From: Candidatus Bathyarchaeota archaeon
Lineage (GTDB): Archaea; Thermoproteota; Bathyarchaeia; 40CM-2-53-6
NCBI GenBank assembly: GCA_963780265.1
Contig: CAWABQ010000028.1
Span: 135,491-199,490 of the forward strand
DNA length: 64,000 bases
Direction of reading: 5' to 3'
This document shows, piece after piece, positions 7,309 to 52,476 of this stretch. Numbering within the stretch: position 1 is the first letter of the stretch; each line of letters starts with the position of its first letter. The translations under genes were made by a program, and so were the position numbers. Under the pieces are notes generated by a model. It had not been told where the DNA came from, searched no databases, and saw only the letters and a list, made by a program, of their open reading frames with translations.

Positions 7309-7310
7309 TA

Positions 7311-9335: not shown

Positions 9336-9352
9336 TGAAGGGTCGAAAGAAT

Positions 9353-10752: not shown

Positions 10753-10785
10753 GAGAACCAAAAAACATCGGACAAAAACCGATGG
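10753..10785 (+). repeat. short IS-derived fragment, copy F
   Basis: GAGAACCAAAAAACATCGGACAAAAACCGATGG shares the AACCAAAAAACATCGGA 5' block with copy E. Confidence 0.4.
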
Positions 10786-10899
10786 CTCTTCTTGATGAGG
10801 AAGAACATCGACATTACTGCCTCAAAGACGATCAAGCCTGGCTTGGCAAAGACCTATCTTGAATACACGCCCGTACTGTAATCTCAAGCTGGAAGCTGT

Positions 10900-13713: not shown

Positions 13714-15181
13714 ACTGAAATCGCAGGTCAACAAACTCTGGGACAGGTTCTGGTCAGGAGGGATAGCCAACCCGCTTACTGCGATCGAACAGATGTCGTA
13801 CCTAATTTTCATGAAGCGCTTGGAAGACCTTGACAGTATTCACGCCAAGAGAGCTGCCATTAGAAAAGAGAAATTCAAGTCGATTTTTCAGGGACATGAG
13901 GACTGCCGTTGGTCACAGTGGAAGAACCTGAGTGCAGAGGCGATGCTAAAACACGTCTTGGGAGTCGTTTTTCCATTCATAAAGAATTTGACGAATGGCG
14001 ATGATGTCCTCTATTCGCAATATATGAAGGACGCAATGTTCGTCATCCCTAAGGCCTCTCTGTTGCAGGAGGCGGTCGCGATTATCGATGAGATGAACAT
14101 CACCGAAAGGAATCAAGACACACAAGGCGACATCTATGAGCACCTCTTGGCCGAACTCAAGACCTCGGGAAAGAATGGGCAATTCAGGACGCCACGTCAT
14201 ATCATCCGTATGATGGTCGAGCTTGTTGACCCTGACATAGGCCAGACGGTCTGTGACCCAGCGTGCGGCACGGCGGGGTTCCTTATTGCAGCATACGAGC
14301 ACATCTTGAGACGGTATACGAGCGATGAGATTGTCAGTGTGGACGAGGACGGTTCCGTGCATAACCTTTACGGAGACAAGATCATCGAGAAAGCTCACTG
14401 GGATCTTCTGAAACGCGAAACGTTCTTCGGATTCGATTTCGACACCACGATGATCCGCATTGGCCTTATGAACATGATATTGCACGGAATCGAGAGGCCC
14501 AACATTCGCTACTCGGACACGCTCTCGAAACGATTTGAACAGAAACCAATCTATGACATGGTATTTGCGAATCCTCCGTTTGCGGGTTCAATCGATAAGA
14601 GCGACATCAATGACACATTCAAACTGGACACGGCGAAGACAGAGCTTCTCTTTCTCGAACTGTTCTACAACCTCCTCAGAATGGGAGGTCGGGCTGCGGT
14701 TATTGTTCCCAATGGAGTTCTCTTCGGCTCCTCAAATGCTCACATTAAGGCGAGGCAATTACTTCTTGAGCAGTCAGAGCTTCAAGCCGTTGTTTCGATG
14801 CCCTCCGGAATCTTCCAACCCTATGCAGGCGTGAGCACAGCAGTCCTCGTTTTCGTAAAAGGAGGCAAGACGGAGAATGTCTGGTTCTATGAAATGAAAG
14901 CGGATGGCTATAGTTTGGACCAGAAACGTGATTTCATTGACGGCAAAGGCGACATACCTGACATCATCAAAGAGTTCAAAAGGCGTGCCAAATCGGCTCA
15001 GAGTATTCTTGTGCCCTTTTCAGAGATAAAGAAGAGTGACTACAATCTCTCCATATCACGCTACAAGAAGGTTGAGCATGAGGAAGTAGCGTACGAGGAC
15101 CCGGAAGTTTTGATTGAGAAAGTTTCGCAATTAGAGGAAGAGATTGCGAAGGATTTGCAGGAATTGAAAGCGATGATTTAG
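13700..15181 (+). CDS. hsdM: type I restriction-modification N6-adenine DNA methyltransferase (HsdM)
   Basis: HsdM N-terminal domain (LWDRFWSGGI), SAM motif (VCDPACGTAGFL) and catalytic FANPPFAGS. Confidence 0.95.
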   Translation: MLSPELKSQVNKLWDRFWSGGIANPLTAIEQMSYLIFMKRLEDLDSIHAKRAAIRKEKFKSIFQGHEDCRWSQWKNLSAEAMLKHVLGVVFPFIKNLTNGDDVLYSQYMKDAMFVIPKASLLQEAVAIIDEMNITERNQDTQGDIYEHLLAELKTSGKNGQFRTPRHIIRMMVELVDPDIGQTVCDPACGTAGFLIAAYEHILRRYTSDEIVSVDEDGSVHNLYGDKIIEKAHWDLLKRETFFGFDFDTTMIRIGLMNMILHGIERPNIRYSDTLSKRFEQKPIYDMVFANPPFAGSIDKSDINDTFKLDTAKTELLFLELFYNLLRMGGRAAVIVPNGVLFGSSNAHIKARQLLLEQSELQAVVSMPSGIFQPYAGVSTAVLVFVKGGKTENVWFYEMKADGYSLDQKRDFIDGKGDIPDIIKEFKRRAKSAQSILVPFSEIKKSDYNLSISRYKKVEHEEVAYEDPEVLIEKVSQLEEEIAKDLQELKAMI

Positions 15182-15182
15182 C

Positions 15183-16385
15183 ATGGATCTTCCGAACGGA
15201 TGGAGTGCAGTCAGACTGGGCGAAGTCTGCAGGGTCATGGATGTTGACCACAAGATGCCGAAGTCGCAGCCGAATGGAATACCGTTCATATCTGCTAAGG
15301 ACTTGGTGGGGAGCTCGTCCATTGACTTTAGCGAAACGAAATTCATTTCCGAAGAGGATTATCGTCGGCAGGCGAAAAAATGCGCTCCGAAAAAGAACGA
15401 TGTATTGTTCACTCGAATCGGAACGATAGGTGTCGCACGGTTAGTCAAGGACGACCGAAGATTCGGGATTTCCTATAGTCTATGTGTTGTCAGACCCTCA
15501 GAAAAAGTCGTGCCAGAGTATTTGGAGGCGCTGATGAACTCGGAAGTCGTCAAGAAGCAGGCGACAATGGGAACTCAAAGTATAGCCGTGCCCGATTTGG
15601 GCCTAAAACAGATAAGAGATTTCTTGATACAGCTTCCGCCTCTGAACGCTCAGAAAAGAATAACCAGCATTTATGAAAGAGCAACACGACTGAAGGACTT
15701 ACGCAGACAAGCAAACCAGCTTACCAGCAGAATCATCCAGTCAGTCTTTCTGAAGATGTTTGGAGATCCTGCAACGAATCCGAAGGACTGGCCAACTACA
15801 ACAATAGGAAATCATGCAAACATACGGTACGGAACTGGCAGCCCTCCTCGCTACGAAGAGAATGGAATACCGTTCGTTCGAGCTACAAATATCAAGATGG
15901 GCAGAATCGTCAGCCGTGAAATGAAATTCATTTCGGAAGAATCCACGAAGAGGATAGCGAAATGCAGGTTACAGAGCGGTAACCTCATTCTGGTGAGGAG
16001 CGGCGTAAATACGGGCGACTGTGCGTATGTGACAGACGATTACGACGGAGCGTATGCGGCTTACGATCTCATTCTAGATTTTGACAAGGACCTAAACAGC
16101 CGTTTTGTCTGGGCGATTCTGAACATGCCCCATGCAAGGAAAATCATGAAGTCGAGGAGCATCAGAGCGGCTCAACCTCATCTTAATGCTGGTCAGGTGT
16201 CCTCCATAGAAGTCCCGAAACCTCCAATTGAATTGCAAAGGAAGTTTGTGTCTTGGATAGAGAGAATCGATGGACTTGAGGCCAAACAAATGCGATCATC
16301 TCAAGAAATCAATCAACTCTTCAACTCTCTCATGCACAAAGCCTTCAGAGGAGAACTCAAGCGTGCGGAGACGAGAATTGCTTGA
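15183..16385 (+). CDS. hsdS: type I R-M specificity subunit (HsdS), two target-recognition domains
   Basis: Duplicated architecture with conserved spacers (LPPLNAQKRITSIYE..., VPKPPIELQRKFVSWIE...LMHKAFRGEL). It starts 2 nt after the hsdM stop. Confidence 0.9.
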   Translation: MDLPNGWSAVRLGEVCRVMDVDHKMPKSQPNGIPFISAKDLVGSSSIDFSETKFISEEDYRRQAKKCAPKKNDVLFTRIGTIGVARLVKDDRRFGISYSLCVVRPSEKVVPEYLEALMNSEVVKKQATMGTQSIAVPDLGLKQIRDFLIQLPPLNAQKRITSIYERATRLKDLRRQANQLTSRIIQSVFLKMFGDPATNPKDWPTTTIGNHANIRYGTGSPPRYEENGIPFVRATNIKMGRIVSREMKFISEESTKRIAKCRLQSGNLILVRSGVNTGDCAYVTDDYDGAYAAYDLILDFDKDLNSRFVWAILNMPHARKIMKSRSIRAAQPHLNAGQVSSIEVPKPPIELQRKFVSWIERIDGLEAKQMRSSQEINQLFNSLMHKAFRGELKRAETRIA

Positions 16386-16500
16386 TGTCGGTAGACGTGT
16401 GCTCGTTCAATTAGCCGAGCTAATCTAAATCACTTCGTTTTCTTGCGGCTTCATATCAACTTCTTTCGAAGTCTTGCTGCACTTAACAACCATAGGTACA

Positions 16501-16545
16501 GACGAACCAAAAAACACCTAACAAGAACCTATCAAACATAGAGCT
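16501..16545 (+). repeat. short IS-derived fragment, copy D
   Basis: GACGAACCAAAAAACACCTAACAAGAACCTATCAAACATAGAG. Confidence 0.4.
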
Positions 16546-16627
16546 ACTTGAATACTTGAATGGATAATGCAAACAAACAATCCACTCAGAACCGCAAGGT
16601 GTGCGACAACAATAGAACAAGACCTAA

Positions 16628-16936
16628 CGTAACCAAAAAACATCGGAAAAGAGAGCCTATGAGACAGAAAAATACGACTTTCGAGAGAGATTTCAATTCC
16701 AGAGTATTTTGCCTAGACGGTCTAACTGACATGTAAATCGCGAGCGACTAATGAGAACGCTAGAGAAGGGAGACACACCAATCTTAACGGGTATGCAAAT
16801 CTTCCACAACTACATTCGACCACACCAAGCATTGAACGGAAAGACACCCGCCGAACTAGCGGGAATAGAAATCCAAGGCGACAACAAGTGGCTTACCTTG
16901 ATTCAAAATGCGAGCCGTAAAACTGCAAAGTCTTAA
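16628..16936 (+). mobile_element. longest remnant of the IS (rve/IS6-like) transposase 3' half, copy E
   Basis: CGTAACCAAAAAACATCGG...ERDFNSRVF (decayed), then the intact-looking tail MRTLEKGDTPILTGMQIFHNYIRPHQALNGKTPAELAGIEIQGDNKWLTLIQNASR. No N-terminal or catalytic part is present. Confidence 0.6.
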
Positions 16937-16965
16937 GAACCTTTGCGACTGTACGGGGAGTCCCA

Positions 16966-17736
16966 TTGCGACAGCGAACCCGAACTTTAGTCATCATTCT
17001 CCTAGTTTCCTCAGCCTTGACGATAGAGCTAATTCCAAACGCAAGTAGCCAGCAATTTACCACATCTACCTCATTTCTTACAAGTTCGTTGACCCAAACT
17101 GTGACTCAGTATGTTCCAACCTCCACGATTGTAACCCAAGCCAGCATGACTAGCGCAACGACCAGCTTCCCACTTCAATCTGCACAAGGCGCATGCCTCT
17201 ACAATATCGCTTACTTCACGCTTACATTCAACACTACGGAGCCGTTGCAGATCAGTTACGACTTGCATCCTCTTAGCCTTCCATATTCTTCATACATAGA
17301 CATGTATATCGGGGGGTCCTACTTCCCAGGAAGTGGACCATTTACCCCATTTACCTTAAACGGGTCGCATTGTGTTCTAAATGGTTATTACCCTGCATTA
17401 TTCGGAAATTATTTCGGCCTTGTAGGGACTGGAACCGTGAATACGACCTCGGCGCTATCAAGTGGAACTTATGCAATACTTGTGGTAGCCTATGCGCCCT
17501 ATGCACCCTCAACGGTTACGTTGGCAATAACATTTCCAGCAGCAACCTACGCTACTACATCGTTCTTTTCCATGTCCATGATACTAACGACCAGTGGAAT
17601 GACAACTCTTACAACCTCAACCATCTTAGAAGTACCATTCATCCAAACCTATGGCTATTTGATAGTTGCTGCTGTAATTGCGGTGTTACTCGTTGGTCTA
17701 CTGTTGTTCACTCGACGAATGAGGCAGCTAAAGTGA
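16966..17736 (+). CDS. secreted S/T-rich protein with C-terminal membrane anchor
   Basis: Signal peptide (LVIILLVSSALTIELIPNASS), a T/S-rich ectodomain, and a C-terminal TM plus basic tail (LIVAAVIAVLLVGLLLFTRRMRQLK). Confidence 0.6.
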   Translation: MRQRTRTLVIILLVSSALTIELIPNASSQQFTTSTSFLTSSLTQTVTQYVPTSTIVTQASMTSATTSFPLQSAQGACLYNIAYFTLTFNTTEPLQISYDLHPLSLPYSSYIDMYIGGSYFPGSGPFTPFTLNGSHCVLNGYYPALFGNYFGLVGTGTVNTTSALSSGTYAILVVAYAPYAPSTVTLAITFPAATYATTSFFSMSMILTTSGMTTLTTSTILEVPFIQTYGYLIVAAVIAVLLVGLLLFTRRMRQLK

Positions 17737-17884
17737 AAGAATCCAAGCTTACCTAGGTGACGGTTTTTTACAGCCCCTTTCAAGACAGGGGAAAACGGTT
17801 AGGTGACGACATCTTGACGTTACCTCACTAAATCCGCTTTATTACGATCAGTTACGCAGAGTAACAATAGCCCATCCATTGAAC

Positions 17885-18235
17885 TCACACACCGTAAGTC
17901 GGATAGACTTGCTTGACTTCACCTTTCGAATCTACCCCTAGTAATACTAAGCCTAGTTTGTCGAAGACTTTAGAGTCAATGTGTTTTGCAGCGCGTAAGG
18001 TCGTAACCATCGCTACTTGGTCGTACCCGTAGGCTAATGCTTCGGATAGCTGTCCTATCCCGCGTGTAATATCGTCCCGAGGTGTTTTCAACTCCAAAGC
18101 CATCCTCCAGCCTTTCCCTAGAACCTCACCATCTATCGCCACATTACCCAATCGTATCGAACGCATCTGAACCTGCAATCCTTTGCTTCGGAAATGCTTT
18201 GAAACAGCCCACTTGAGCCAGCGGAGATTTGTCAA
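17885..18235 (-). CDS. small PD-(D/E)xK-like protein translationally coupled to the integrase
   Basis: The 116-aa ORF start overlaps the integrase stop by 4 nt. NVAIDGEV..WRMALELKT resembles the D..E-x-K core of Hjc/YraN-like nucleases. Confidence 0.45.
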   Translation of the reverse strand: MTNLRWLKWAVSKHFRSKGLQVQMRSIRLGNVAIDGEVLGKGWRMALELKTPRDDITRGIGQLSEALAYGYDQVAMVTTLRAAKHIDSKVFDKLGLVLLGVDSKGEVKQVYPTYGV

Positions 18236-19182
18236 TTGCGTTCTCCTTCCAGCAGGCGTAGGTTGACTGATTCATAGACGATTTTCATCTTGTCAACTCT
18301 GAAGTCAGAGTAGTGTCTAGCTAGAATTGACTTGGGAGCTCTGCCTTGAAATGCGTCAACATACCTATCTTGAACGCCAAGACTGCCCATCCTATCTGCG
18401 AACCAATCTCGCAAATCTTTAGGCTTAATCTTGAATCCACACTGTTTGCTAGCCTTCTCGAAGACATGACGCAAACCTTGAGGTAGCAGATTGAAGAGTT
18501 GCTCATTCCCTTGCCAAGTCTCTTTGGATGCTAAATGATTTTGTAGCAGTTGATCGCATTCGGGAGAGTAGAACGAGCACCAAGACTTCTTGGTTGAGCC
18601 TTCATGATTCTTGGGAATGATCGCTCTTCTGGATATGTCCAAGTCTTCGTAGCGTAACGATAGAATCTCCATCTCACGGAGACCGCTAGTTGCAAGCAAG
18701 AGGAACATGAGCTGGTGTACCGGTTTTGTAAGAGCATTATAAAAGAGCCTCATTTTCTCAGTGCTTGGAGCTTCTTTGGGAACGAAGGGCGCTCGTGGAT
18801 AACGAAAACTGTCGGTTATTGGTGAACCAAGAAAGCTTCTGTAGAAGCATCGAAATCCACGAATTATGTTAGCTCTACTGTTGGGTGGAGAATCGGAGTA
18901 GTTTTCAAGCATATAGTTTCGAAGATCATCTCTTGTAGCTTGTCTTAGATCCTTTGGAAACGATTTCGAGAAGCATCTCATTATTCCTTTGTAGCGCTCA
19001 ATGGTCTCTTTTGCAAGTTGCAGGTCCACTCTACAGAATTTGCTGAATTCGTCAAGAAGCTCAAGTGCGTTGACAGACTCGCCATAATTTGTAGTGTTTG
19101 CGAGAGGATTATTCGGGCTGTTTAGATGAATGTCGCCTAAAACAGAAGGTGGGTTACGGCCAACACACCAACCCGTTTCATT
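18232..19182 (-). CDS. tyrosine recombinase, C-terminal fragment Int(C) of the partitioned integrase
   Basis: Catalytic-domain motifs are present (LLATSGLREMEILSL, KDLRDWFADRM, ILARHYSDF). The frame stays open upstream of the GTG at 19029, through att and on to 19287, with no ATG/GTG/TTG. The gene therefore lacks its own N-terminus. Confidence 0.8.
   Translation of the reverse strand, partial: NETGWCVGRNPPSVLGDIHLNSPNNPLANTTNYGESVNALELLDEFSKFCRVDLQLAKETIERYKGIMRCFSKSFPKDLRQATRDDLRNYMLENYSDSPPNSRANIIRGFRCFYRSFLGSPITDSFRYPRAPFVPKEAPSTEKMRLFYNALTKPVHQLMFLLLATSGLREMEILSLRYEDLDISRRAIIPKNHEGSTKKSWCSFYSPECDQLLQNHLASKETWQGNEQLFNLLPQGLRHVFEKASKQCGFKIKPKDLRDWFADRMGSLGVQDRYVDAFQGRAPKSILARHYSDFRVDKMKIVYESVNLRLLEGERN
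19122..19182 (+). repeat. attR: second copy of the 61-bp repeat (displaced 3' end of RNase P RNA)
   Basis: 61/61 identity with 3440..3500. Confidence 0.9.
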
Positions 19183-25537: not shown

Positions 25538-25785
25538 ATCTTAGTGAAACGAGTAACCTAGGTGCTTTGTCGTCGCCCCAAAGAGCACAGAGCCTTGGCT
25601 AAGGTCCGCTACCACATTCCGTTAAGGACACCCCAAAAACAGGGCTATTACTCAACATGCCGGCATGTACAGTCTTCTGCGAAATCCACACCGTCCTAGG
25701 GACGGGTTTGTCACAGTCAGTGGAATATGACAGCGCAAGGTTTATTCGCGATGTCGCTAGGTGTCGTTGCATAAGTGAATCAGAA

Positions 25786-26232
25786 ATGTCGTACTATTAT
25801 GTTCCGAGACCGGCGGTTCCATACACAGTCTACGTACCGCAGCAATGCTACTCGGCTGAGCAACGTCTAGCCCCCCAGCCTCCAGAGGTATTCTACCAAC
25901 CCCCGCCTCAGTACTACTGCTATCAGCCTCCTGCTACGATGTCCACCTATCAACCCCCGGCCCAGGTCTACCAGCCTCCGCCCGAGCACTACTTCCAGCA
26001 GGCTCCGGCCCAAGCATACGCCTATCAGCCTCCGGCCGTTCAGGTGGGTGAATCTGGCGGATATGGCGCGTATGGCGGATTAGGTGGATTCGGCGGATTC
26101 GGCGGCTATGGCGGATACGGCGGCTATGGCGGATACGGCGGCTATGGCGGATACGGCGGCTATGGCGGATACGGCGGCTATGGCGGATACGGCGGCTATG
26201 GCGGATTAGGCCGACGTGGCGGATTCTGGTGA
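25786..26232 (+). CDS. low-complexity protein: P/Q/Y-rich N-terminal part plus (GGY)n tail
   Basis: Starts at the internal ATG 25786 (MSYYYVPRPAVPY). It has repeated YQPP units and a C-terminal GGYGGYGGY tract encoded by the tandem repeat. Confidence 0.55.
   Translation: MSYYYVPRPAVPYTVYVPQQCYSAEQRLAPQPPEVFYQPPPQYYCYQPPATMSTYQPPAQVYQPPPEHYFQQAPAQAYAYQPPAVQVGESGGYGAYGGLGGFGGFGGYGGYGGYGGYGGYGGYGGYGGYGGYGGYGGYGGLGRRGGFW
26101..26208 (+). repeat. 18-bp tandem repeat GGCGGCTATGGCGGATAC x5 perfect plus 1 imperfect (in-frame, encodes GGYGGY)
   Basis: Read directly. Degenerate units also lie upstream (26056..26100). Confidence 0.9.
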
Positions 26233-26890: not shown

Positions 26891-27038
26891 AGCGGGGTGG
26901 GGTAGCCAGGTTTAACCCGCAGAACCTTCCCGTGCGGAGGGCTCATATCCTGGCGAGAAACCCTGAGATTGAGTCCAAAAACTCCTCAACCGGTGGTTCG
27001 AAAGGCAAACAAGCCCGAATATCCACCCCCCGCTACCA
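26891..27038 (+). tRNA. initiator tRNA-Met (CAU) gene with four predicted introns, CCA encoded
   Basis: A1:U72 acceptor (AGCGGGG/CCCCGCU), GGG:CCC anticodon stem and CUCAUAA loop. Proposed exons are 26891..26922, 26940..26947, 26960..26969, 26991..27002 and 27022..27038. The splice product AGCGGGGUGGGGUAGCCAGGUUUAACCCGCAGGGCUCAUAACCCUGAGAUCGGUGGUUCGAAUCCACCCCCCGCUACCA (79 nt) is a canonical archaeal initiator. Confidence 0.8.
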
Positions 27039-31653: not shown

Positions 31654-34275
31654 TCACCGCCTGGTTCCGCAGTAGATGCAGAACTTTAGTCCGGCCGCTA
31701 TCTCGCGTCCGCAATTACGGCACGTTTCAGCGCGAGCGGTGGAGGGCTTTGCTTTCTTTTGTGTAGTCTCTTTGGCCACGCTCGGACCGAGGTTTGCCCC
31801 GCAATAGGTGCAGAACTTGAGTTTCGTCGAGATTTCCCGCCCGCAATTGGGGCAAGGCCCGGAAAGCTCTGGGCCTGGCGGCTCGTGCTTTTCGGGCGGC
31901 TGTTTCTTGGGCCGCTCCATATTAGTGCCGCAGTAGACGCAGAACTTGCGGCTAGTTTCGTTTACTCGCCCACAGACCGGGCAGCCGTTGCCGACAAATT
32001 CCTTCATTGGGGGCGTTGTTAGAGCGGCCAGGGACTCTGGGCTCGCTGGGGCGAGTCTGCCCCATTTCTGTAGAATTCCGAATGGGTCCACTTCGATCTT
32101 CGGGTTTATGCTGACTTTAACAGGTGGGTTGGCCTTTCCGGCTCTTACGACTAACTGTTCTCCACCATGAACCGTCAGCCTCTCGTTCGGATTTTTGAGA
32201 TTCCAGACTTCTACTGCGCTCTCTCGTCCAAAGTCTTCCATGACGGTTATGGCTGCCGTGCTGCCATCTTTCGTGGACTCAATGAACAGCCTCGTTCCCT
32301 GGACGCGGGCGGCCCAGCTGTAGTCGTCTTCGGCTGGAGAACGCGCAAATAGTATTGTCTGGGTCCTGCTTACGCCGTGCTCCTGCCAGTTCATAAAACT
32401 TTTTCCGGCCGCATGAAGGACGACCAGTCCCGTCATCTTGGCAATCTGTTCGGCGGTCGGCCAACGCAGCCACGGAACTGGAATCCTTGAGAGAGGGTCA
32501 AGCCAGTCAACGTTGGTGTTTGAGCCTACGAACATGCCGGTTCCTGTGCTTCCTGTTCCTGTCGGGGAAGCGACGCCCTGGTTTTTAGCTAGCTGATCAA
32601 GGGTCCAGTTCAAGTTCAGGCCGGTTCTCAGGCTTCCATTATCGCCCGTGCTAATATGGTCGCCCGGCTCTATTGGAACATCCACGGGTTTTACGTTCCC
32701 GTTCTCGTCAGTTATCCCCACGTCTCCTTCCGCGTCCTGGTCGAGGAAGAATGGTTCGTGGGAGCAGACATCGTCCTCGCAGATGTGAACCCCGACCAGC
32801 GTCTGGCTGGTGCAGATCTTCCCGGACTTAGCAGTCCCGGTGGCCTTTACTAGGAATTTGTGGAGGTTGCCTGAGGAACTGACGTAGCCGCCGCCCACTG
32901 TCATCTTTCTTACCCACCCTTCCAGGACTGCCTTGGAGCGGCCGCTCACCAGCTGCGTCCTCTGTGGAAAGTGCGCAGTCCAGGGGGTCGTTGTATGCCA
33001 CATAGTCGAAAGTGACCGGCCTGTTTTCCGACCCGGGCCAGTCTAGGCGAAGTGGAATCGAGAACATGCTCTGATCTGGTCTAACCTTCACGACACCGTA
33101 TGGAACGGTGAACAGAGTAGGCCTGGAAGGGTCATATGGCGACGGGTCGTAGGTGAGCTTGAAGCCCCGGCACTCGTCACACTCCTCTTCTTTCCTCTTC
33201 TTGTTCCAATACCAGCCACCAGCCGTGATTGCTGTTATTGCCGGGATCAGTATGACCGCTGGTATCGTGTAATCCGCACTGCAAGTGGCCGTGTAGGTTT
33301 GGGGCTGGTGGATAACCACCTGCGCCGAAGGGCTATCTATCGGTGGGCTTCCGGCCACCTGTTGAATACGCCCTTTCCTCCTAACTGTCCGAGCAATCCC
33401 TCCATCGGTGCCTGCTGCTCGACCTTGATTGTGGCAGTGTCACCATCGTTATACCAGCCGCCCCCCGTGGGCTGGAGGATTGGACATTGAGAGTTTAGGT
33501 CTAGGAGGTATTGAGTATTGTAGGTGGCGGTGGCTTTGTGAGCGGAACACATAGTGACCTGCGTGCTTGTTGTACTCGAGTCATCTATCGCCCAACCATT
33601 GAAGGCGTCTCTAATCCCTGGGGACCCTGCAATAGTGTCGGGATGGCCAAGACCCGGGAGCTGGACAGATGCACAGGAATCATACCATCCATAAACGTAG
33701 GTACCTGCGGCGCTATGCTTGTCTTCGATTACCAATCGATACTGGGAGTTATAGCTGAACGTGAATTGGCAAGGTTTGCAGGGAGGCGTGAAGGTTGCTT
33801 GGGTGTACGTTTGGGTGTATGGGACCGTTACATAATATCCAGAGGTGCAACCGTGGACGTCGTAAGACGTGCACACATATTCATAGTCGTAGTAGGTTTC
33901 TGTGTAGGTTCTTGTTTCTATTGTGCCTGCTGGCACCGTCCAAGTCCATTGGTTGGTGGAAAGTCTCATGCCTTTTCTCCAGTCGGTGACCTGGTCTCCA
34001 CATTCTGATCCACTCTGGCAAATTACCTGAGGGACTTGAAAATGATGCGGCTTTGATCCGTCCAATGTTACAGTCTTTGTCTTAGAGAACCCGACCCCGG
34101 TTCCGCCGTCAATCGAAAGGGTGGTCTTGTCGGCGCCCTTGAGTGTAATCGTGTAGGTCACTTGAGTGTTTGCGTATTGGCTAGGCGAGAAGGCGCCTCC
34201 CTTCGATATGGCTAGTGATTGAACTGAAGCTGAAGCCACAACTAGAACGAGAAGAGTAACGAGGCTAGCTCGCAA
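31654..34275 (-). CDS. large single-pass surface protein with three C-terminal zinc ribbons; interrupted by two 1-nt frameshifts
   Basis: ORFs 33337..34275, 32828..33358 and 31654..33003 join if one base is restored at 33353..33356 (FNRW/AGSPP) and in the G5/C5 run at 32983..32987 (AYNDP/PWTAHF). Layout is a signal peptide, a beta-rich ectodomain, a TM (AVILIPAITAITAGGWYW), a large cytoplasmic part and 3 copies of C-x2-C..F-C-x-Y-C-G. Confidence 0.6.
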
Positions 34276-35724: not shown

Positions 35725-36325
35725 TTCGGTTCATCTCATTCTAGTCTGAGTTCATATTTCTGGAGCGAGTGAATTAACAAAGATTTCGTCTTGCAGGACC
35801 TAAAGCTCATGAGGAGGCATTGAGGATCTGCAATCCGCGACGGCGGACTGGAGCTCGCGTCGCCGTCATAACGCATATTCTTTGATCAAGACCTCCGGGA
35901 CTCCCAGCTTTCAACCCATTCGCATAATTCTCCTGAGAGGACCATCTTCACTCGTATTTTTCGCACAGAACCAACATCACCCATTAATTTCCCTCCTCCC
36001 GACGCAATAGACCGAATCCGTATAACAATGAATCTCACCCGCATTCGATGGATCTCCGTCGCTCGGTGTTCGACAGAGCATTAACCATGTGATGGATTCA
36101 CCGCATTGATGTGGTGGGGCGGGAGGGAATATCATGACCCTGACAGGTCATTTTGAACCCTCGCTCACCGGTGTACTCGCTGTTCGGTATTTTCTGGTCC
36201 CGAGACCGGTTTCAAGGCAAGCGCATGCTCGCTATCTTAGACCAAGTTGTCCCCACGAAGGGTGAACTCGTGGCCTGGACCACCGCCCCTAAACCCAGTA
36301 GGGACCGGCCACTCGCTTAAATGCT

Positions 36326-36979: not shown

Positions 36980-39290
36980 ATGGTGGTTGCGAGCCATCTT
37001 CTAGGCGGTAATTGCTTGTTTCGTTCATCGGAGAGAGTAGGTGCTGGCATCTTCGATGCCGCGTCTGCCCCGGTGAGACTACAGATTTTACGACTTCTCT
37101 CAACCAAAGGCCCACTCCAGTACACGGAAATAATGTTCCAAGTCAAACTCGACCCCGTGCGGGACGCAGGAAAATTTGTCTACCATCTCCGGAGCCTAAC
37201 CGACATAGGCCTAGTGACGCTTGAGAAGAAGACGAAGCGGTACGAGGTCACTGAACTCGGCCGAATGATCGTTTCCTTCGCTAGAGACTTGGACGAGTAC
37301 GTTAATGTCAAGCGCGGAAAACTCTATGTGCGATCTTCAAGGCTCGCGATAGAGGAATTTCACAGGAATAAGATCGCAAGATCGCTGGTTGTTGAAGCAG
37401 GTGTCCCCCAAGAGATGGCGGACGAGATAGCGGCTGAGGCTGAGGATAGGCTTGTCAGATTGAAGACGACTTACCTTACTGCGCCGTTGATCCGAGAGTT
37501 CGTTAATGCGATCTTGATTGAGAAGAAGCTTGAGGAATACCGCCACAAGCTCACAAGGCTGGGAATGCCAGTTTACGACGTGACCCAACTCATCAAAACT
37601 GCGGGCGAGAAACAACTTAGCGCTGGTTACGTCCAACAATCGTCGGCTAGGTCAGTCCTCTCGGAATACGTCCTGCTCAACTGCCTTCCTCACAAACTCG
37701 CGGACGACGCACCTGTCAGGTGAAATCCACATAGCCAACTTGGAAAACTGGATTCTCTCACCGAACGAAATAATTCACGACGTACGCTACTTCCTAAAGA
37801 ACAGTCTCCCGGGAATGTCACCACCCGACACTTTCGAGGCGGCCCTTGCACTGGTCCGCCAAGTATTGGAGCTTGGCGCCGGGGAGATCTCGGGAGAGCA
37901 GACGGTTGAGTTCTTCAACATCTTCCTCTCCCCGTACGTTCGAGGAAGAACTGCGGAGGACATTTCCAACGGGCTTTACTACTTCTTCACGTCAATGCGG
38001 AGAGATATCCCCTCAAGCAGTCCTCTAGCGGGCATATCAATCTCGGTTGACTTGGCGACGCCAGAGTTCCTTTCGCAGGAGGATGCGATTGGGCCGAGCG
38101 GCAAATCCGTCGGCAAATACTCAGGTTTCATAGAGGAGAGCAACCGGTTGGCAGGCGCGACAATCGAAGCCTTTCAAAAGATGTCGCACTCACGACCGCC
38201 GATTCTGCCCCATCTCCTAGTGAGAGTTAGGCGTAAGGCTCTGAATGACGAACAGGCCAGAGGAATTCTTGAAAAAACACACGAACTTGCCTTACAACGC
38301 AGCATACCATTCTTCGAACTAAGTGGCGACGAAGAGAAGAGCAGTTACTCGGCTACGGGGCTTAGGTTGGGCGATGAGTGGACGAAGCACTGGGACGCTG
38401 ACTGTATCAGGACAGGCAGCATGGACACCATTTTCCTAAACCTTCCCCGAATATCCTACGAGGCCAAGAAGAATGACGAAAAATTCCTAGCACTACTTAG
38501 GGAAACTGTCGCGTTAACCGTGGAAGGTTTCAAATTCAAGAAAAAGTTCGTGAGCGAACGTTTGAAGCAGCCACTGCTCCCTCTCTTGGCCGGTGAGAGT
38601 GGCGCCGCGCCTTACTTCTACGAAAAGAACTCTTCCTACAATCTCTCATTTATTGGCCTGAACGAAGCCGTTGACGCGCATACCGGACTGAGGATGGAAC
38701 GGGACAAAGGAGCGGCCGATTTCGGCCTAAAAATACTGCAAGAAGCTTCGAAGCTGCTGAAGTCCGCCTCAGAGGAAGCAGAGATGCGAATCTTGGTTTC
38801 ACAACGGCCCGGGGACGAAGCTGCGGGGAGGCTTGCAGAATTGGATATGGGGCAATATGGAAGGGCAGCTATCGTGGCAGACGGATTTAGGGGGCTCTTC
38901 CACTACACCGACTTGCCGACCATTCCTCTGACAACCAAAATGGCTATCGACAGCAGGTTGGAATTGGAATCAAGGTTCCAATCAGCCACGCCCGGCGGCC
39001 ATCTCAGTTTGGTCTGCATCTCCCCTGATTCCACTGCGCCCGCCCTTCTGAAGCTAACGGAGAGAGCATTTGAATCTGGTTGCAAGTTCTTGGCTTACAC
39101 ATCAAACTACTCGGCCTGCAGCGTCTGCAACCACACCGACCTTGGGGTTACTCCGAAGTGCAGTAGTTGCGGTTCAGACAAGATCACACACCTAGGCCGG
39201 GCATCATACGGCCTGCTACCCTTCACCCTTTGGCCTGAGGCAAAGAAGAGAAGTGTGGAAAGGCGGATATCTTACACGGTAGCTAGCTGA
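36980..39290 (+). CDS. wHTH (ArsR-like) + ATP-cone + class III ribonucleotide reductase (NrdD)-like protein; frame break near 37710
   Basis: wHTH is VRLQILRLLSTKGPLQYTEI...RYEVTELG. ATP-cone is LYVRSSRLAIEEFHRNKIARSLV...IREFVNAIL. The frame switch is at LADD/HLSGEIHIANL, the NrdD AH-x-x-G-x-IHI motif. The NrdD-like core includes NLPRISY, with a C-terminal Zn site CSVCNH..CSSCGS. Confidence 0.7.
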
Positions 39291-42514: not shown

Positions 42515-42629
42515 TGGTAGCCCGGGGGAGAGACTCGGGCATTTTGGTAATGCCTTTCGAACTCCCGTCGGAGGGTCCAAAGCCCTCTATGCTTCTGCGG
42601 GTTTGAACTGTCCACTACACCACCGGGCT
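42515..42629 (-). tRNA. tRNA-Gln (UUG) with two predicted non-canonical introns, CCA encoded
   Basis: A1:U72 acceptor AGCCCGG/CCGGGCU and anticodon arm GAGGG-CUUUGGA-CCCUC. Proposed introns are 42593..42608 (D-loop/stem junction, 16 nt) and 42532..42555 (T-loop 59/60, 24 nt). The spliced length is 75 nt. Confidence 0.8.
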
Positions 42630-42733
42630 ACTGGTTCGTGAAAAATCTAGGAGAGCTATCTAACCTTTTGTCCGGCTGGGGATGAGCACATAACCCAGAT
42701 GACATCTCATGTTGGCGGATAAGTAGGTCGCCC

Positions 42734-43584
42734 TTGAACGCTCTCAAACCAATCGGGTCTGAACCCGCACTTTTGTTGCGGCGACGCGGCGAGAGGGTTG
42801 TCGTTGTCGGCGATCTTCACATAGGCTGGGAAGTCACTTTATCCCAGCAAGGCATCCACATTCCATCGCAAACCGGGAAAATGCTGCAGAGGCTGAGGGT
42901 GATCATTGAGAAGGAACATCCCTCACGCATTATCATACTAGGCGACGTGAAGCATAGCGTAACTCGCGCGGAGCTGGAAGAATGGCGGGACGTCCCAGAT
43001 TTCTTTGAGGCGTTGCTGAAACTGGTTCCTTCTGTTCAGGTCATTTTGGGGAACCATGACGGCAACCTGGAACCACTAACGCCTTCGAAGGTCGAGATTC
43101 TTCCGTCCACTGGCCTAGCGCTGTGGGGCCGGTTTGGGTTGCTGCACGGCCATGCCTGGCCATCCCCGGAAATACTTGGATGCGAAACCTTGATCCTCGG
43201 CCACCTTCATCCTGCGGTTACCTTACGCGATGCTTTGGGTTACAGGTTGACGAAACCCGCGTGGGTAACGGCCTCTTGCGATCCGAAGAAACTGGTTCGC
43301 GGAACTTTGAAGGCCGCAGGAATTCAACCTGGAAGCGATCTTGAAAAAACCCTGAAGGAAAGATTTCGAGTGAAACTTGCAGCGAAGCGATGTGTTTTCG
43401 TTCCGCCGTTCAACGACTTCCTGGGCGGGCGGCCAGTGAATTCTCGGAAAATTGAGGAAACACAGCGGGCGAACGGCTTGGGCCGATTCTGAGGTCGGGA
43501 GCAGTGGACATGGAAGATGCAGAGGTACACCTACTCGATGGTACGTACTTGGGACGAGTAAGGCAACTGAAGGAGTTCGGATAG
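42734..43584 (+). CDS. metallophosphoesterase (calcineurin-like), 1-nt frameshift near 43483
   Basis: VVVGDLHIG, ILGDVKH, GNHD, GHLH. The tail continues in another frame (GLGPILRSGAVDMEDAEVHLLDGTYLG) if a C is added to CC at 43483..43484. Confidence 0.75.
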
Positions 43585-43585
43585 G

Positions 43586-44497
43586 TCAGTGGCTAGATGG
43601 GTTGTCGCAGGTTTGGCAGTACCATCGTCGGTGGTTCGCTGAGTAGTATAGGTCCCTACCGCACGTGGGGCACAAAGGTGTCTTTGGCGCTGGCGCGGGA
43701 GCTGAAGGAGCTGGCATGCCCATCTGTCCCGGCGGAAATTGACCCATCGGTCCACCAGGCATTGGCCCACCCATCGGAGACCCGCCCATCATTGGTCCGC
43801 CCATCGGAGGCATGGGTGCGCCAGGAGGACCCGCGAATGCCATGGGGGGAGGTGGCGGCGGCGGACCGGCCATTGCTGCACCTGGAACTGCTTCACCCAG
43901 GACTGCGACGGGGCCATATTTTGCTATGACTTCGCCAAGCCGGCCGTAAGTCATGTAGAAGAAGAAAGCCGGAAGAAGCAGTAGAACCGTTGGGAAGAAT
44001 GACAAGGGCGCGACCAACACCAAAAATACTGGAATAGTAAACAGCACTGCAAAGAATAGTGCAGCACCTCGCGCCCTCTCGTAGCGTCCTCTGCTAATGT
44101 TACGTACCGTCGAGAAGTAGAGGATTGCGAGGAAGATGATAGCCGCAAGGAGACCTATGACGCCAAACCCCAAGTAAGCGAACCAAACTGGTGGCAGCCC
44201 TACGCCTGGGAATGTTAAGATTAACAGAAGTGTTCCTATCAGCGGTATGCCGGCTAACCATGCGGGCAAGACGGGCGGCAGAATAACAGAGGATGGAATA
44301 TACGGGGAAGCCAACAACCCGAGCGCACCTATCGTAAGGACAATTATGAACCAAGGAAGGACGTAAAGAAACACGAGTACGAATCCTATGATGGCGTAAT
44401 CATGAGCCCCGTTAACCTCAGGAGGGCGAATAACAACCGGCTTGCTTCTGTCTTCTACAATCGCGGGAGCCGGCATTAGGACAGGTGCGGGTTCCAT
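43586..44497 (-). CDS. polytopic membrane protein with a P/G/M-rich linker and C-terminal zinc ribbon
   Basis: About 6 TM helices, then GPPPPPPPMAFAGPPGAPMPPMGGPMMGG, then CPTCGRDLYYSANHRRWYCQTC. Confidence 0.65.
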   Translation of the reverse strand: MEPAPVLMPAPAIVEDRSKPVVIRPPEVNGAHDYAIIGFVLVFLYVLPWFIIVLTIGALGLLASPYIPSSVILPPVLPAWLAGIPLIGTLLLILTFPGVGLPPVWFAYLGFGVIGLLAAIIFLAILYFSTVRNISRGRYERARGAALFFAVLFTIPVFLVLVAPLSFFPTVLLLLPAFFFYMTYGRLGEVIAKYGPVAVLGEAVPGAAMAGPPPPPPPMAFAGPPGAPMPPMGGPMMGGSPMGGPMPGGPMGQFPPGQMGMPAPSAPAPAPKTPLCPTCGRDLYYSANHRRWYCQTCDNPSSH

Positions 44498-44757
44498 CTT
44501 GAAACCTCAATGAACACTAAGCGTCGGCTAACGAATCACATAACAATTGCCACTTTCTCAGTAGGCATAAACATGCTTCAATTGGGGCCTGCGGTAGTCT
44601 GAGCCTAGGTTAAGCAAGCACCGGTTAGTCAAAACTCGTTGACACCAAGTTGTTGATTTATAGAGGGAAGGTAAAGATGAACACCTACGAAATCTTATGG
44701 TGAACGGGAAACGTTTATGACACCTCTGGCCGGCTTATAAGCGAAAGGTAAGAAACA

Positions 44758-44904
44758 ATGAGTTACGTCTACTACGCCGCACCGATAATGGTCCCGATAG
44801 AGTGTCAGCCCCAACCGCCTGTAGTGTTCTATCCGGTAAATTACGTCAGATTCAGGTTCCCAATCCCCGTCCAGTATTCACCTCCCCCTGTAGCAATACT
44901 ATAG
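44758..44904 (+). CDS. hypothetical P/Y-rich mini-protein (48 aa)
   Basis: MSYVYYAAPIMVPIECQPQPPVVFYPVNY shares its N-terminal pattern with the ORF at 25786 (MSYYYVPRPAVPY...APQPPEVFYQPP). It is below the ORF-track cut-off. Confidence 0.4.
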   Translation: MSYVYYAAPIMVPIECQPQPPVVFYPVNYVRFRFPIPVQYSPPPVAIL

Positions 44905-44964
44905 AAAAAATCACTCCCACCAACTAGGGGCTGCCATAATCCAGCCCTTACTACCGACGTTATT

Positions 44965-45080
44965 TGGTGGACCGGGCGGGATTCGGACCCGCGACCTTCC
45001 GGAAGCTTGGTGAAGAACTTGCAAACCGGACGTTCTTCGGCCCAGCAAACGCTTGGTATACCAGGCTGAACTACCGGCCC
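44965..45080 (-). tRNA. tRNA-Ala (UGC) with two predicted introns, CCA encoded
   Basis: GGGCCGG/CCGGUCC acceptor with G3:U70, and anticodon arm UCCGG-UUUGCA(A/U)-CCGGA. Proposed introns are 45036..45058 (D-loop, 23 nt) and 45004..45019 (canonical 37/38, 16 nt). The spliced length is 77 nt. Confidence 0.85.
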
Positions 45081-45209
45081 ACTTTCCCTACAACCTCTGA
45101 CTCGAAACCTTTAACCCTTCCCCGCTCTCCGCGCAGGCCACATCGATAAGAATAAGAAGTATTCCACCTCAATTTTCGAACGCGCCATCGAAAGTTGAAC
45201 TAAGCCTGC

Positions 45210-45455
45210 TCACAACCGCTCAAAGGTAAGGTTAGCTACGTTCTTCGCATTCTGCAAAGAAGCTAGACATTCTTCGCATACCCTTTTCTCAAATTCGCCG
45301 GCAACAAGCGACTCCTCATCAAACAACGGCATGGAAGAGGATTGAAGGTACTGCGCAGTGAACTTCGCCTTCCTTGTCGCAGGTTTCCTCTCGCAAACCT
45401 GACACATACCAGGCCCACTTCGCCTAAGCATCCGATCGATAATTGCACCCACCAT
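45210..45455 (-). CDS. hypothetical small CxxC protein
   Basis: 81-aa ORF with CQVCE and CEEC. Confidence 0.4.
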   Translation of the reverse strand: MVGAIIDRMLRRSGPGMCQVCERKPATRKAKFTAQYLQSSSMPLFDEESLVAGEFEKRVCEECLASLQNAKNVANLTFERL

Positions 45456-45513
45456 CCTTCAATCTAATTGGCGTAGGAATTTACATCTGCCACTTGAAAA
45501 ACGAATTGTTGAG

Positions 45514-45651
45514 GGCCGCCGGTGGGAGTTTCACGTCGTTTCTGGCGACGCTTTGAACCCACCCCGTAGGGTCCACAGCCTTGTACCCTAAGTTGGGTCT
45601 ATACGCTACCAAGTTTCGCGGAGTTTCGGACTCCTCTACGCTACGGCGGCC
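45514..45651 (-). tRNA. tRNA-His (GUG) with three predicted introns; encoded G-1, no CCA
   Basis: G-1 plus GCCGCCG/CGGCGGC acceptor, C73 discriminator, and anticodon arm UAG|GG-CUGUGGA-CCCUA. Proposed introns are 45613..45635 (D-loop, 23 nt), 45581..45598 (anticodon stem 29/30, 18 nt) and 45528..45551 (T-loop 59/60, 24 nt). Confidence 0.8.
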
Positions 45652-50529: not shown

Positions 50530-51585
50530 TCATTGCCACCGTTTCGTTGTTCCCTTCCAGTAAGCTTTCCAATATGGGTCAGAATTAGGATAGGTGAGGC
50601 GGACGCGCCCTCGCCTCGTTATAGCTTGCGCTGAACGTTTCTTCGACGTGAACCGGCCGACGATCTGCGATGGTATTCCGGCTCGGTTCAGTTGGCTCAA
50701 GACTTTTGATGTTTTGTTCGGCCGGGAGGCAATTATGAGAGTCCCCTCGCTTAGGGATGTCAAAGGGTCGATTCGAAAGAACTTGCAGATTTCCCGCGTC
50801 TCTTCAGAAATCGAAATTTCGTCGACATCGAGTTCTGTTCCGAGGCCTGATGCGTTTGCAAGTTCTAAGACCGCAGCAATGACCCCGCCCTCGGTTGCGT
50901 CATGCATGGCTGTTACGCCATCCCGATGAATTCCAACAGAGGCTGCTATGAGAGCGTCTTTGACGGTCGACACCTTGGACAGGTAACGCCAAGCCTTCTC
51001 GAACAGTCTGGCCCCTAACACTTTCTTAATCGTTCGCGGGAATGCTCGGGTGAGGATTGCGGTTGTCTCGACTGCAACGCCTTTGGTGAGGATGATATCG
51101 TCTCCGCTAGTAGCCATTTCAGATGTTAGGTACCGCCCTTCATCACAGACGGTGTACATCACGCCGCCCCCAATTATCGAATAGCCGCAACCTTGGTATT
51201 TTCCCGTGTGCCCCCCCACAATCGCGACCCCAAGCCTCTTGCACTCAGCATGGAACGCCTTCCAATACTCGGCAAATTGGTGATTGCTCATTTGGGGAGG
51301 AAGATTGAAGTCGAAGATACCGAACTGAGGAGCGGAACCACACGTGGTTAGATCGGATGCTAACAGGTTGACGGAGAGCCACGCAGATTCACGTGGCCGC
51401 AGGCTTGGTATGAAGGATAGTGGGTCAGTTGTGGCCACAAGTACTCTTCCCGTTCCAACTCTGACGACTGCGTTGTCAACGCCGAATTTTGGGCCAACGA
51501 TGATTTCTCGGCGTGCGGCGCCGAGCCTAGGATAGATAACTCTATCCAAGTAGTTTCGGTTGACTTTTCCAAGGTAACCCGTCAA
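50530..51585 (-). CDS. AIR synthase-related (PurM/HypE/ThiL superfamily) protein
   Basis: VATTDPLSF, VNLLASDL, GGHTG and MHDATEGGV are typical of the PurM-like two-domain fold. It lies downstream of thiT on the same strand. Confidence 0.8.
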   Translation of the reverse strand: MTGYLGKVNRNYLDRVIYPRLGAARREIIVGPKFGVDNAVVRVGTGRVLVATTDPLSFIPSLRPRESAWLSVNLLASDLTTCGSAPQFGIFDFNLPPQMSNHQFAEYWKAFHAECKRLGVAIVGGHTGKYQGCGYSIIGGGVMYTVCDEGRYLTSEMATSGDDIILTKGVAVETTAILTRAFPRTIKKVLGARLFEKAWRYLSKVSTVKDALIAASVGIHRDGVTAMHDATEGGVIAAVLELANASGLGTELDVDEISISEETREICKFFRIDPLTSLSEGTLIIASRPNKTSKVLSQLNRAGIPSQIVGRFTSKKRSAQAITRRGRVRLTYPNSDPYWKAYWKGTTKRWQ

Positions 51586-51675
51586 TCTTCTTCACCTCAA
51601 CATTCTAGGATTGTACACGCAAGAGGGAGAGCGAAAAGAGGAGGTTTGCGTTATTCCGCGTTTCTTTGTGGCGGC

Positions 51676-52194: not shown

Positions 52195-52299
52195 CGTCCA
52201 ACTTCACCTCCATGTTTCGAGTGAAGGTTACCGAGGACAGCGACATGGAACACTCTGGGTGGATTGCAGAACACAGTTACGCGACTAGAGTTCACTTAG

Positions 52300-52390
52300 C
52301 ACACTCCCTACGCCGGCATTATCCGGTTCAGGTTCACGGGGTCGACGGCATCAACCGTCCTCTCAGCCGGGACACCCCAGCTCCCCCGGT
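52300..52390 (-). promoter_or_regulatory. TPP (THI-box) riboswitch
   Basis: The minus strand reads GGGGUGUCCCGGCUGAGAGGACGGUUGAUGCCGUCGACCCCGUGAACCUGAACCGGAUAAUGCCGGCGUAGGGAGUG. It carries the invariant CUGAGA, ACCC..GAACCUGA and GGAUAAUGCC.GCGUAGGGA blocks, ~100 nt upstream of the thiT GTG. Confidence 0.85.
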
Positions 52391-52476
52391 ACCCTCAGGC
52401 AAGCACAGAAGAAACGCAAATTTAGGGTTAACTCTCAGTTAGCGAAGTACGTTTCAAGTTTTGTGAACGAATGCCG

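Follow-up and report, generated by a model that had tools for sequence, protein, structure and literature searches.

Five transfer RNA (tRNA) genes, encoding initiator tRNA-Met(CAU) (iMet), tRNA-Pro(CGG), tRNA-Gln(UUG), tRNA-Ala(UGC) and tRNA-His(GUG), were identified in a 64-kb stretch of DNA assigned to a Bathyarchaeota archaeon (GCA_963780265.1, contig CAWABQ010000028.1, positions 135,491 to 199,490; the whole stretch is hereafter called the window). Judged from sequence and from comparison with orthologous loci, these are very probably functional Bathyarchaeia genes, each carrying two to four short introns (12–28 nt) that would be spliced by proteins at bulge-helix-bulge (BHB) motifs. The window total is 15 introns, or 3.0 per gene. 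A preliminary description of this DNA had modeled four of the genes with 11 introns (two in tRNA-Gln, two in tRNA-Ala, three in tRNA-His and four in iMet), and both models and counts were recovered by our BHB scan and by in silico splicing followed by ARAGORN; its placement of nine of the 11 at non-canonical positions was reproduced by manual parsing and the BHB scan. Its statement that all other tRNA genes of the window contain several introns holds in that no gene there has fewer than two, but its list missed tRNA-Pro(CGG). The extreme tRNA fragmentation that it ascribed to the lineage is in fact more extreme than stated, as this fifth gene has four introns.

ARAGORN reported no tRNA in the window, either with default settings or with its intron option. 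Runs with other intron settings gave one mis-modeled tRNA-Ala, and a permissive threshold gave 23 plainly false genes with kilobase-long "introns". The sole match to the Rfam tRNA model was tRNA-Ala (44968–45080, minus strand; 46.3 bits, with two large insertions), and no further tRNA was found in the window at E ≤ 10. In the BHB scan every segment was scored, with four 5′-exon nucleotides pairing with intron nucleotides −6 to −3 and a 3-nt bulge at each splice site. For the gene search, BHB candidates were enumerated, up to four of them were removed between a paired acceptor stem and T-arm, and the products were passed to ARAGORN; run over the whole window, this search recovered the four genes listed previously together with tRNA-Pro(CGG). 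The pipeline alone is non-specific, since it also produced false genes with four "introns" (18088–18330, 51399–51649 and 33053–33271), and it often chose wrong splice combinations within loci (iMet, for example, was called Ala-GGC). Genes were accepted only with a tRNA-like mature sequence and orthologue support. No tRNA gene with zero or one intron was found in the window by ARAGORN, Rfam or the combined search, and a relaxed run of the latter over all intergenic gaps added nothing credible.

Structure, conservation and predicted splicing of the genes

Once spliced in silico, all five sequences were called by ARAGORN (Met, Gln, Ala, His and Pro) and form perfect cloverleaves with mature lengths of 75–77 nt (Table 1). 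Intron boundaries were set by restoration of the cloverleaf, and the BHB score was then compared with background. All 15 introns score at least 11, a value reached by 0.69% of arbitrary 10–30 nt segments of the window, and 10 of the 15 score at least 13 (background 0.08%). Within each precursor, the best-scoring BHB candidates are the required splice sites. The central helix is complete (4/4 pairs) in 11 introns and has 3/4 pairs in four, the weakest motif being the bulge-helix-loop at 37/38 of iMet; this intron must nonetheless be removed, because the CUCAUAA loop is obtained only without it. Identity elements of iMet include A1:U72 and GGG:CCC at the base of the anticodon stem, tRNA-His has an encoded G-1 opposite C73, and G37 was read directly beside the CGG anticodon of tRNA-Pro. 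A shared AAGGTT-A/T-rich box lies approximately 25–38 nt upstream of the Gln, Ala and His genes, and an A/T-rich box (CATTTAAGC) is found at the same distance from tRNA-Pro.

The window contains a gene for Nfo (deoxyribonuclease IV) adjoining tRNA-His and a TiaS gene 1.35 kb upstream of iMet. No database record matched the window's Nfo protein exactly. It has many homologues with 70–99% identity, the named ones belonging to Candidatus Bathyarchaeia archaeon, and the locus is present in three representative genomes, which are Bathyarchaeia metagenome-assembled genomes (MAGs) from the SPRUCE peat experiment. These neighboring proteins and GTDB representative genomes point to Bathyarchaeia, a class within Thermoproteati, and not to membership of Thermoproteales; the likening to Thermoproteales made in the preliminary description thus does not fit a host that is a peat bathyarchaeon. 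Orthologous loci were obtained by synteny via Nfo homologues and via TiaS from JGI, ENA and NCBI assemblies, and are labeled L002, L004, L006, L018, L073, L079, L087, L088, L089, L090 and L091, with four-intron iMet loci among L007–L058. They provided 13 distinct four-intron alleles of iMet, eight of His, five of Ala, three of Gln and three of Pro.

Table 1. Window coordinates of the interrupted tRNA genes, their predicted introns and the restriction-modification genes of the integrated element; helices are those of the BHB motif, and hBHBh′ denotes a BHB with outer and inner helices.
Feature	Position	Strand	Length (nt)	Site	Remarks
tRNA-iMet(CAU)	26891–27038	+			exons of 32, 8, 10, 12 and 14 nt plus encoded CCA; spliced form called tRNA-Met by ARAGORN
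iMet intron 1	26923–26939	+	17	29/30	AACCTTCCCGTGCGGAG; central helix CCGC/GCGG, 4/4 in all eight distinct variants
iMet intron 2	26948–26959	+	12	37/38, canonical	TCCTGGCGAGAA; relaxed bulge-helix-loop; central helix 3/4; outer helix is the anticodon stem
iMet intron 3	26970–26990	+	21	variable loop, 47/48	strict hBHBh′; central helix UGAG/CUCA; inner helix 4–5 bp, U-A to C-G compensatory change
iMet intron 4	27003–27021	+	19	T-loop, 59/60	strict hBHBh′; central UUCG/CGAA, inner GGC/GCC, outer T-stem
tRNA-Pro(CGG)	36112–36289	-			exons of 15, 13, 12, 22 and 14 nt plus encoded CCA; BHB-plus-ARAGORN scan and direct reading
Pro intron 1	36247–36274	-	28	D-loop, 15/16	central helix GUCC/GGAC, 4/4; inner helix 6–7 bp; site shared with His D-loop intron
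Pro intron 2	36211–36233	-	23	25/26	central helix UAAG/CUUG; inner helix 3–6 bp, compensatory changes in L002 and L018
Pro intron 3	36174–36198	-	25	37/38, canonical	central helix CUCG/CGAG, 4/4; outer helix is the anticodon stem
Pro intron 4	36129–36151	-	23	T-loop, 59/60	central helix 3/4 (U54.U mismatch); inner helix 5–6 bp, C-G to U-A change in L018
tRNA-Gln(UUG)	42515–42629	-			three exons plus encoded CCA; orthologues in L002 and L089
Gln intron 1	42595–42609	-	15	D-loop, after 7th loop nt	AGTTCAAACCCGCAG; central helix GUGG/CCGC; BHB score 13
Gln intron 2	42532–42555	-	24	T-loop, 59/60	strict hBHBh′; BHB score 16; loop variable and stem kept in L002 and L089
tRNA-Ala(UGC)	44965–45080	-			three exons, G3:U70, encoded CCA; Rfam match of 46.3 bits; called by ARAGORN after splicing
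Ala intron 1	45038–45060	-	23	D-loop, 19/20	relaxed BHB; central helix GCCU/GGGC, 4/4 in four distinct orthologues
Ala intron 2	45004–45019	-	16	37/38, canonical	hBHBh′; BHB score 14; same position, different sequence in L073, L088 and L089
tRNA-His(GUG)	45514–45651	-			four exons; G-1 encoded, CCA not encoded; eight distinct orthologous alleles
His intron 1	45614–45635	-	22	D-loop, 15/16	boundaries uncertain by 1–2 nt; inner helix GGAGU/ACUCC, U-A to A-U compensatory change
His intron 2	45581–45598	-	18	29/30	central helix GUAU/GUAC, 4/4; BHB score 14
His intron 3	45528–45551	-	24	T-loop, 59/60	strict hBHBh′; BHB score 16; U-A to C-G compensatory change
HsdR, type I restriction-modification system	10900–13713				within the integrated element
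HsdM, type I restriction-modification system	13700–15181				within the integrated element
HsdS, type I restriction-modification system	15183–16385				within the integrated element

Exons are 92–100% identical among orthologues (100% in the 13 iMet alleles, 92–99% in the others), introns are 70–83% identical, and neighboring proteins across the same lineages are merely 57–88% identical. The central helix is kept in all alleles for 11 of the 15 introns; it has 3/4 pairs in most or all alleles at the His D-loop, Pro 59/60 and iMet 37/38 sites, and that of Pro 25/26 falls to 3/4 in L018. Some orthologues fit the motif better than the window genes do: a GCGG exon sequence at the Gln D-loop junction of L089 makes all four central pairs Watson–Crick, and the His D-loop central helix (D-stem strand GCGU), with 3/4 pairs in the window, has 4/4 in L006 and L087. 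Intron loops and bulge nucleotides are free to vary, and double compensatory changes are found in the inner helices, as in the iMet 59/60 intron (C-G to U-A) and the third inner pair of the His 29/30 intron (C-G, G-C or A-U). In the iMet 47/48 and 59/60 motifs, 96.8% of cells are paired vs. 37–53% with the partner slid, and three pairs change on both sides. The Pro orthologues in L002 and L018 retain all four introns, likewise with compensatory changes. Orthologue table, pair counts and exon vs. intron identity all indicate that the BHB motif is maintained while intron sequence drifts. Exon decay of the pseudogene type (broken stems or identity elements) was not observed, and changes in stems are compensated. 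On this comparative evidence, near-invariant exons, variable introns and compensatory changes form the pattern of functional spliced genes, not of pseudogenes.

The preliminary description had named as an alternative that these loci are decaying pseudogenes or remnants, with functional intron-free paralogues elsewhere in the genome. The coverage of just 64 kb and the rejection of four of the five genes by standard predictors would accord with it; the conservation pattern contradicts it, because exons are far better preserved than the neighboring proteins and introns diverge with their helices kept by compensation. The genes are also syntenic and single per locus in many independent assemblies, and neither ARAGORN on approximately 580 kb of related contigs nor Rfam on 145 kb detected a single intron-free tRNA, whatever the isotype. 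We consider this alternative very improbable. That the insertions are assembly or binning artefacts is harder still to credit: the source is metagenomic and the neighboring NrdD frameshift described below could be a sequencing error, but contigs derived from numerous samples by different assemblers (JGI, ENA and NCBI) have the insertions at identical nucleotide positions, with lineage-specific substitutions.

Alleles that precisely lack an intron confirm the predicted junctions. In the iMet genes of a more distant group of orthologues (group B, TiaS approximately 50% identical), introns occur at 37/38 and 47/48 only, and these genes read ...CGCAGGGCUC... (CAGGG) and GGUUCGAAUCC (TTCGAAT), exactly as the spliced window gene predicts. 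The 29/30 intron has no counterpart in group B, which reads ...CGCAGGGCTC, and TTCGAAT is uninterrupted where the window gene has its 59/60 intron; both introns thus occur in the four-intron alleles (group A) but not in group B. L004 and L089 lack the His 59/60 intron precisely (TTCAAAT / UUCAAAU). L089 branches as outgroup in the Nfo tree, with L004 next to the intron-bearing L002 as its sister (Nfo 95% identical), and the simplest history would be a single gain and then a recent, precise loss. The His T-stem is GCGAG/CUCGC in L004 (4739–4850, minus strand; no 59/60 intron) vs. GUGGG/CCCAC in L002 (9730–9864, minus strand), and this difference suggests that the 3′ part of the L004 gene was replaced by recombination rather than that the intron was simply deleted. 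Presence and absence among close relatives, indicating recent gain or loss, is therefore documented for His 59/60, iMet 29/30 and iMet 59/60, and intron gain and loss within Bathyarchaeia is real. Distant relatives have different intron sets, namely D-arm, anticodon-loop and 47/48 introns in the three-intron iMet gene of L079 (5283–5410, plus strand) and, in L073 (7357–7481 and 7191–7304, both minus strand), D-loop and variable-loop introns in tRNA-His and D-loop and 37/38 introns in tRNA-Ala, which indicates that a high intron load is widespread in the class.

For two D-loop introns alternative boundaries were considered. Other boundaries in tRNA-Ala were rejected because they would lose G19, and G18G19 is conserved; in tRNA-His a boundary at 16/17 was rejected, since L006 and L087 form a perfect central helix with 15/16. 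The T-loop of tRNA-Ala(UGC) (44979–44985, minus strand; also L002, L004, L088 and L089) reads UCCGAAU, a C replacing the normally invariant U55, and the more distant L073 gene has the usual UUCAAAU.

Across the 13 distinct four-intron iMet alleles, the 37/38 intron (TCCTGGCGAGAA) never changes, in contrast to the other three introns. It contains CCUGGC, the exact complement of the D-loop sequence GCCAGG, and the two are paired in the predicted minimum-energy fold; the 18-nt counterpart at 37/38 in group B is likewise invariant. This invariance suggests a constraint beyond the BHB.

Based on established archaeal tRNA splicing (PMC4090602, PMC5829648), from which the enzymes and cleavage steps are taken, each gene would be transcribed as a single precursor whose 5′ end is trimmed by RNase P. 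The last exon nucleotides would pair with the 3′ part of the intron to form a 4-bp helix between two 3-nt bulges (strict or relaxed BHB), both bulges would be cut by the archaeal splicing endonuclease and the exons joined by an RtcB-type ligase, so that up to four cut-and-join rounds may yield a normal 75–77 nt tRNA. Introns of this kind need a broad-specificity endonuclease of the (alpha-beta)2 or epsilon2 type (PMC5829648). Ordered removal seems likely because the structure must retain micro-exons of 8–13 nt, among them GGCUCAUA, which carries the anticodon of iMet; some order also seems necessary since the BHBs borrow D-stem and anticodon-stem strands.

Several points weigh against functional splicing at all five loci. 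Four junctions have just 3/4 central pairs, and the iMet 37/38 intron and its group B counterpart fit the motif poorly. Nearest-neighbor folding of full precursors predicts only some of the BHBs, and minimum-free-energy and partition-function folding of precursors and all partly spliced intermediates gave no consistent BHB prediction or splicing order and was taken as evidence for neither side. The catalytic motif of the splicing endonuclease (searched as a regular expression) and a ligase were not found in the window or related loci. Splicing is predicted from sequence, and as the analysis covers 64 kb of the genome, intron-free paralogues may lie elsewhere.

Similarity among the introns

The preliminary description had further regarded the T-loop introns as one family and proposed that their density and relatedness fit a transposition model. 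The sequence details that it quoted were confirmed: the iMet and Gln 59/60 introns share AGGCA...GCCCGA.U, the two Ala introns have ACCAAGC in common, and His and iMet each have an intron of 17–18 nt at 29/30. The shared ends of the iMet and Gln introns thus stand, but their likeness is mostly forced by pairing with the T-loop and is not significant after correction. All four 59/60 introns (iMet, Gln, His and Pro) share the plan of 1 nt, a stem-loop, 4 nt and 2 nt. Their pairing 4-nt segments (CGAA, CGAG, UGAA and UGAU) are similar because pairing with the invariant T-loop UUCG or UUCA is required of them. Beyond this forced part, the iMet and Gln introns share only an A and a 3-bp GGC/GCC stem, which is GGCG, GGUC or GACGC in iMet orthologues, and neither the His nor the Pro 59/60 intron is related to them in sequence.

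By shuffling, the similarity of the iMet and Gln 59/60 introns has p ~ 0.03 and that of ACCAAGC in the two Ala introns p ~ 0.009, both uncorrected; only CCAAG is common to the latter pair in L002. The best of the 105 possible pairs, the iMet 47/48 and His D-loop hairpins (GAGTCC.AAACTCC), has p ~ 9e-4, or ~0.09 after correction, in a set of 15 introns only. None of the pairs is significant after correction for 105 comparisons. Orthologous introns are far more similar than introns of different genes within one genome, which argues that they were inherited vertically with the gene since the lineages split and gives no sign of recent transposition or homogenization. Fit to the transposition model is accordingly not demonstrated, and we rejected homology of the T-loop introns as an established fact in view of the shuffling p-values and the variable stem in orthologues.

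It is unlikely, in our assessment, that the introns, the T-loop ones above all, are copies of one or a few mobile families spread by transposition as in Thermoproteales. Occupation of the same sites in different genes (59/60 in four, 15/16 in His and Pro, 29/30 in iMet and His), the A-GGC...GCC-CGA common to iMet and Gln, the uncorrected similarity of the two best-matching hairpins, and the presence/absence polymorphism by which introns come and go would all agree with such a spread. Set against it are the forced 3′ ends, the variability of the GGC/GCC stem, the lack of sequence kinship of the His and Pro 59/60 introns with those of iMet and Gln, the loss of significance on correction, and the closeness of orthologous relative to cross-gene introns; with 15 introns, however, the test of transposition is weak and is not a refutation, and an older spread, before these lineages split, may have occurred. 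Site reuse is probably better explained by conserved exon sequence (the T-loop UUCR and the D-stem strand), which readily supplies half of a central helix.

Two introns resemble pieces of tRNA. The Gln D-loop intron AGTTCAAACCCGCAG (42595–42609, minus strand) matches the last 15 nt of iMet exon 1 (26908–26922, plus strand) at 12 of 15 positions, both ending at a splice site, and the His D-loop hairpin GGAGTCCGAAACTCC (45614–45635, minus strand) resembles the tRNA-Gln T-arm at 13 of 15 positions, a likeness that is not kept in orthologues. Both likenesses are probably due to chance (p ~ 0.003 each, over 75 tests).

An integrated element and other features of the window

An archaeal RNase P RNA gene was identified by Rfam at 3193–3486. 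A perfect 61-nt direct repeat (3440–3500 and 19122–19182) duplicates its 3′ end, and the 15.7 kb between the repeats (element 3440–19182) encodes a tyrosine integrase adjoining the right repeat (18232–19029, minus strand), the type I restriction-modification system of Table 1 and a DUF2130 protein. In the relatives L090 and L091 the repeat site is present once, and approximately 2 kb of toxin-antitoxin (PIN/MazE) genes take the element's place. The RNase P RNA gene serves as the attachment site of this 15.7-kb integrated mobile element. An older proposal holds that introns shield tRNA genes from integration (PMC4090602); an element in the RNase P RNA gene of a window in which every tRNA gene is interrupted bears on this proposal and is no proof of it. 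Dispersed repeats of 30–60 nt with the core GAACCAAAAAACA and pairs of 63-nt and 122-nt repeats are confined to the element (4279–4328, 7195–7301, 8116–8214, 10755–10783 and 16495–16731). In L090 (1–576, minus strand) and L091 (1–1477, minus strand) a 16S rRNA gene is found a few kilobases upstream of the urocanase–rhomboid–RNase P RNA block, and by analogy one may lie just beyond the left end of the window.

Between TiaS and iMet, an open reading frame (ORF) at 25657–26232 (plus strand) encodes a long GGY repeat tail and proline/glutamine-rich repeats, with no Pfam match. The NrdD gene (anaerobic ribonucleotide reductase; 36980–39290, plus strand) has a frameshift near 37720, reading KLADDAPVR* vs. 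KLADAHLSGE in L002, whose NrdD is one uninterrupted ORF of 757 aa; the frameshift either is a sequencing error or marks a genuine pseudogene. A thiamine pyrophosphate (TPP) riboswitch of approximately 70 bits (52287–52397, minus strand) is kept in L002 (16467–16581) and L089 (11616–11729), and in both it stands directly upstream of a Thia_YuaJ thiamine transporter gene.

Comparison with known systems

Reviews and the tRNAscan-SE 2.0 paper put the upper limit for archaeal tRNA genes at three introns, with an average of 0.84 per gene in Thermoproteales and a record of 71 introns in 46 genes in P. calidifontis (PMC4033280, PMC8450103). The four-intron genes described here contradict this maximum. 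We do not claim four introns per gene as a record, because several four-intron genes of Asgard archaea have already been tabulated, e.g., Arg-TCT and Ile2-CAT of Freyarchaeia (PMC11291895 Supplementary Data 4). Our literature search found no paper on Bathyarchaeia tRNA introns. The present data extend extreme tRNA fragmentation to Bathyarchaeia, which are among the most abundant uncultured archaea of sediments and peat. As ARAGORN found none of the five genes and Rfam one, grading of MAGs by tRNA counts and inference of codon usage or decoding would be badly off without iterative BHB-aware prediction.

It is a tentative proposal, which we hold slightly less probable than its opposite, that this clade has the most intron-dense tRNA set yet, with approximately three introns per gene, well over 100 per genome, essentially no uninterrupted tRNA gene, and a five-exon initiator with an 8-nt anticodon micro-exon. 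If so, translation would depend wholly on iterated, probably ordered splicing by endonuclease and ligase, and the clade would be a natural series for the origin of archaeal tRNA introns, with gain and loss still ongoing in close relatives. The iMet alleles with two, three or four introns and the His T-loop intron present or absent in close relatives are material for testing models of gain and loss.

Thermoproteales (Pyrobaculum, Thermofilum and Caldivirga; Sugahara 2008 and Fujishima 2010, via PMC4033280, PMC4090602 and PMC8450103) resemble the present case, so far as these accounts describe them, in having short BHB introns, several to a gene, at canonical as well as many non-canonical positions, in acquiring introns rapidly within a lineage and in being poorly detected by standard tools. 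They are hyperthermophilic crenarchaeotes, whereas the host here is a bathyarchaeon from mesophilic peat, and their 0.84 introns per gene compare with 3.0 here (15 in five genes). The cross-gene intron families that define the Thermoproteales transposition model were not detected among our 15 introns.

In wetland-soil Asgard archaea (Atabeyarchaeia and Freyarchaeia) studied in 2024, 92–95% of tRNA genes are interrupted, over half of them with multiple introns, and three genomes contain 228 introns in approximately 121 genes, or about 1.9 per gene (PMC11291895). These archaea share with the present case a waterlogged-soil habitat and under-calling of introns by a standard tool, tRNAscan-SE (PMC11291895). 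They belong to another phylum (vs. Bathyarchaeota/Thermoproteati), and that study had no orthologue-based validation or gain/loss series (PMC11291895). Since Thermoproteales, wetland Asgard archaea and peat Bathyarchaeia all share it, a high intron load is not tied to hyperthermophily. Thaumarchaeota/Nitrososphaeria are, like the host here, non-thermophilic members of the same superphylum with non-canonical BHB introns, but have far fewer introns per gene (107 non-canonical introns over all genomes analyzed with the tRNAscan-SE 2.0 clade model; PMC8450103).

The red alga Cyanidioschyzon merolae likewise has multiple BHB-type introns, up to three per gene, in the D-loop, at 37/38 and in the T-loop, and their ordered removal, shown experimentally, is a precedent for the order that we propose here; its genes are eukaryotic and nuclear, and some are circularly permuted, unlike those of the window (PMC3728597). 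Split and tri-split tRNAs of Nanoarchaeum equitans and Caldivirga maquilingensis follow the same BHB logic, with split sites that overlap common intron sites. Such genes are trans-spliced, whereas the exons here are contiguous and colinear in one transcription unit. The Bathyarchaeia set is a new and very dense case of a known form of gene interruption, and not a new mechanism.

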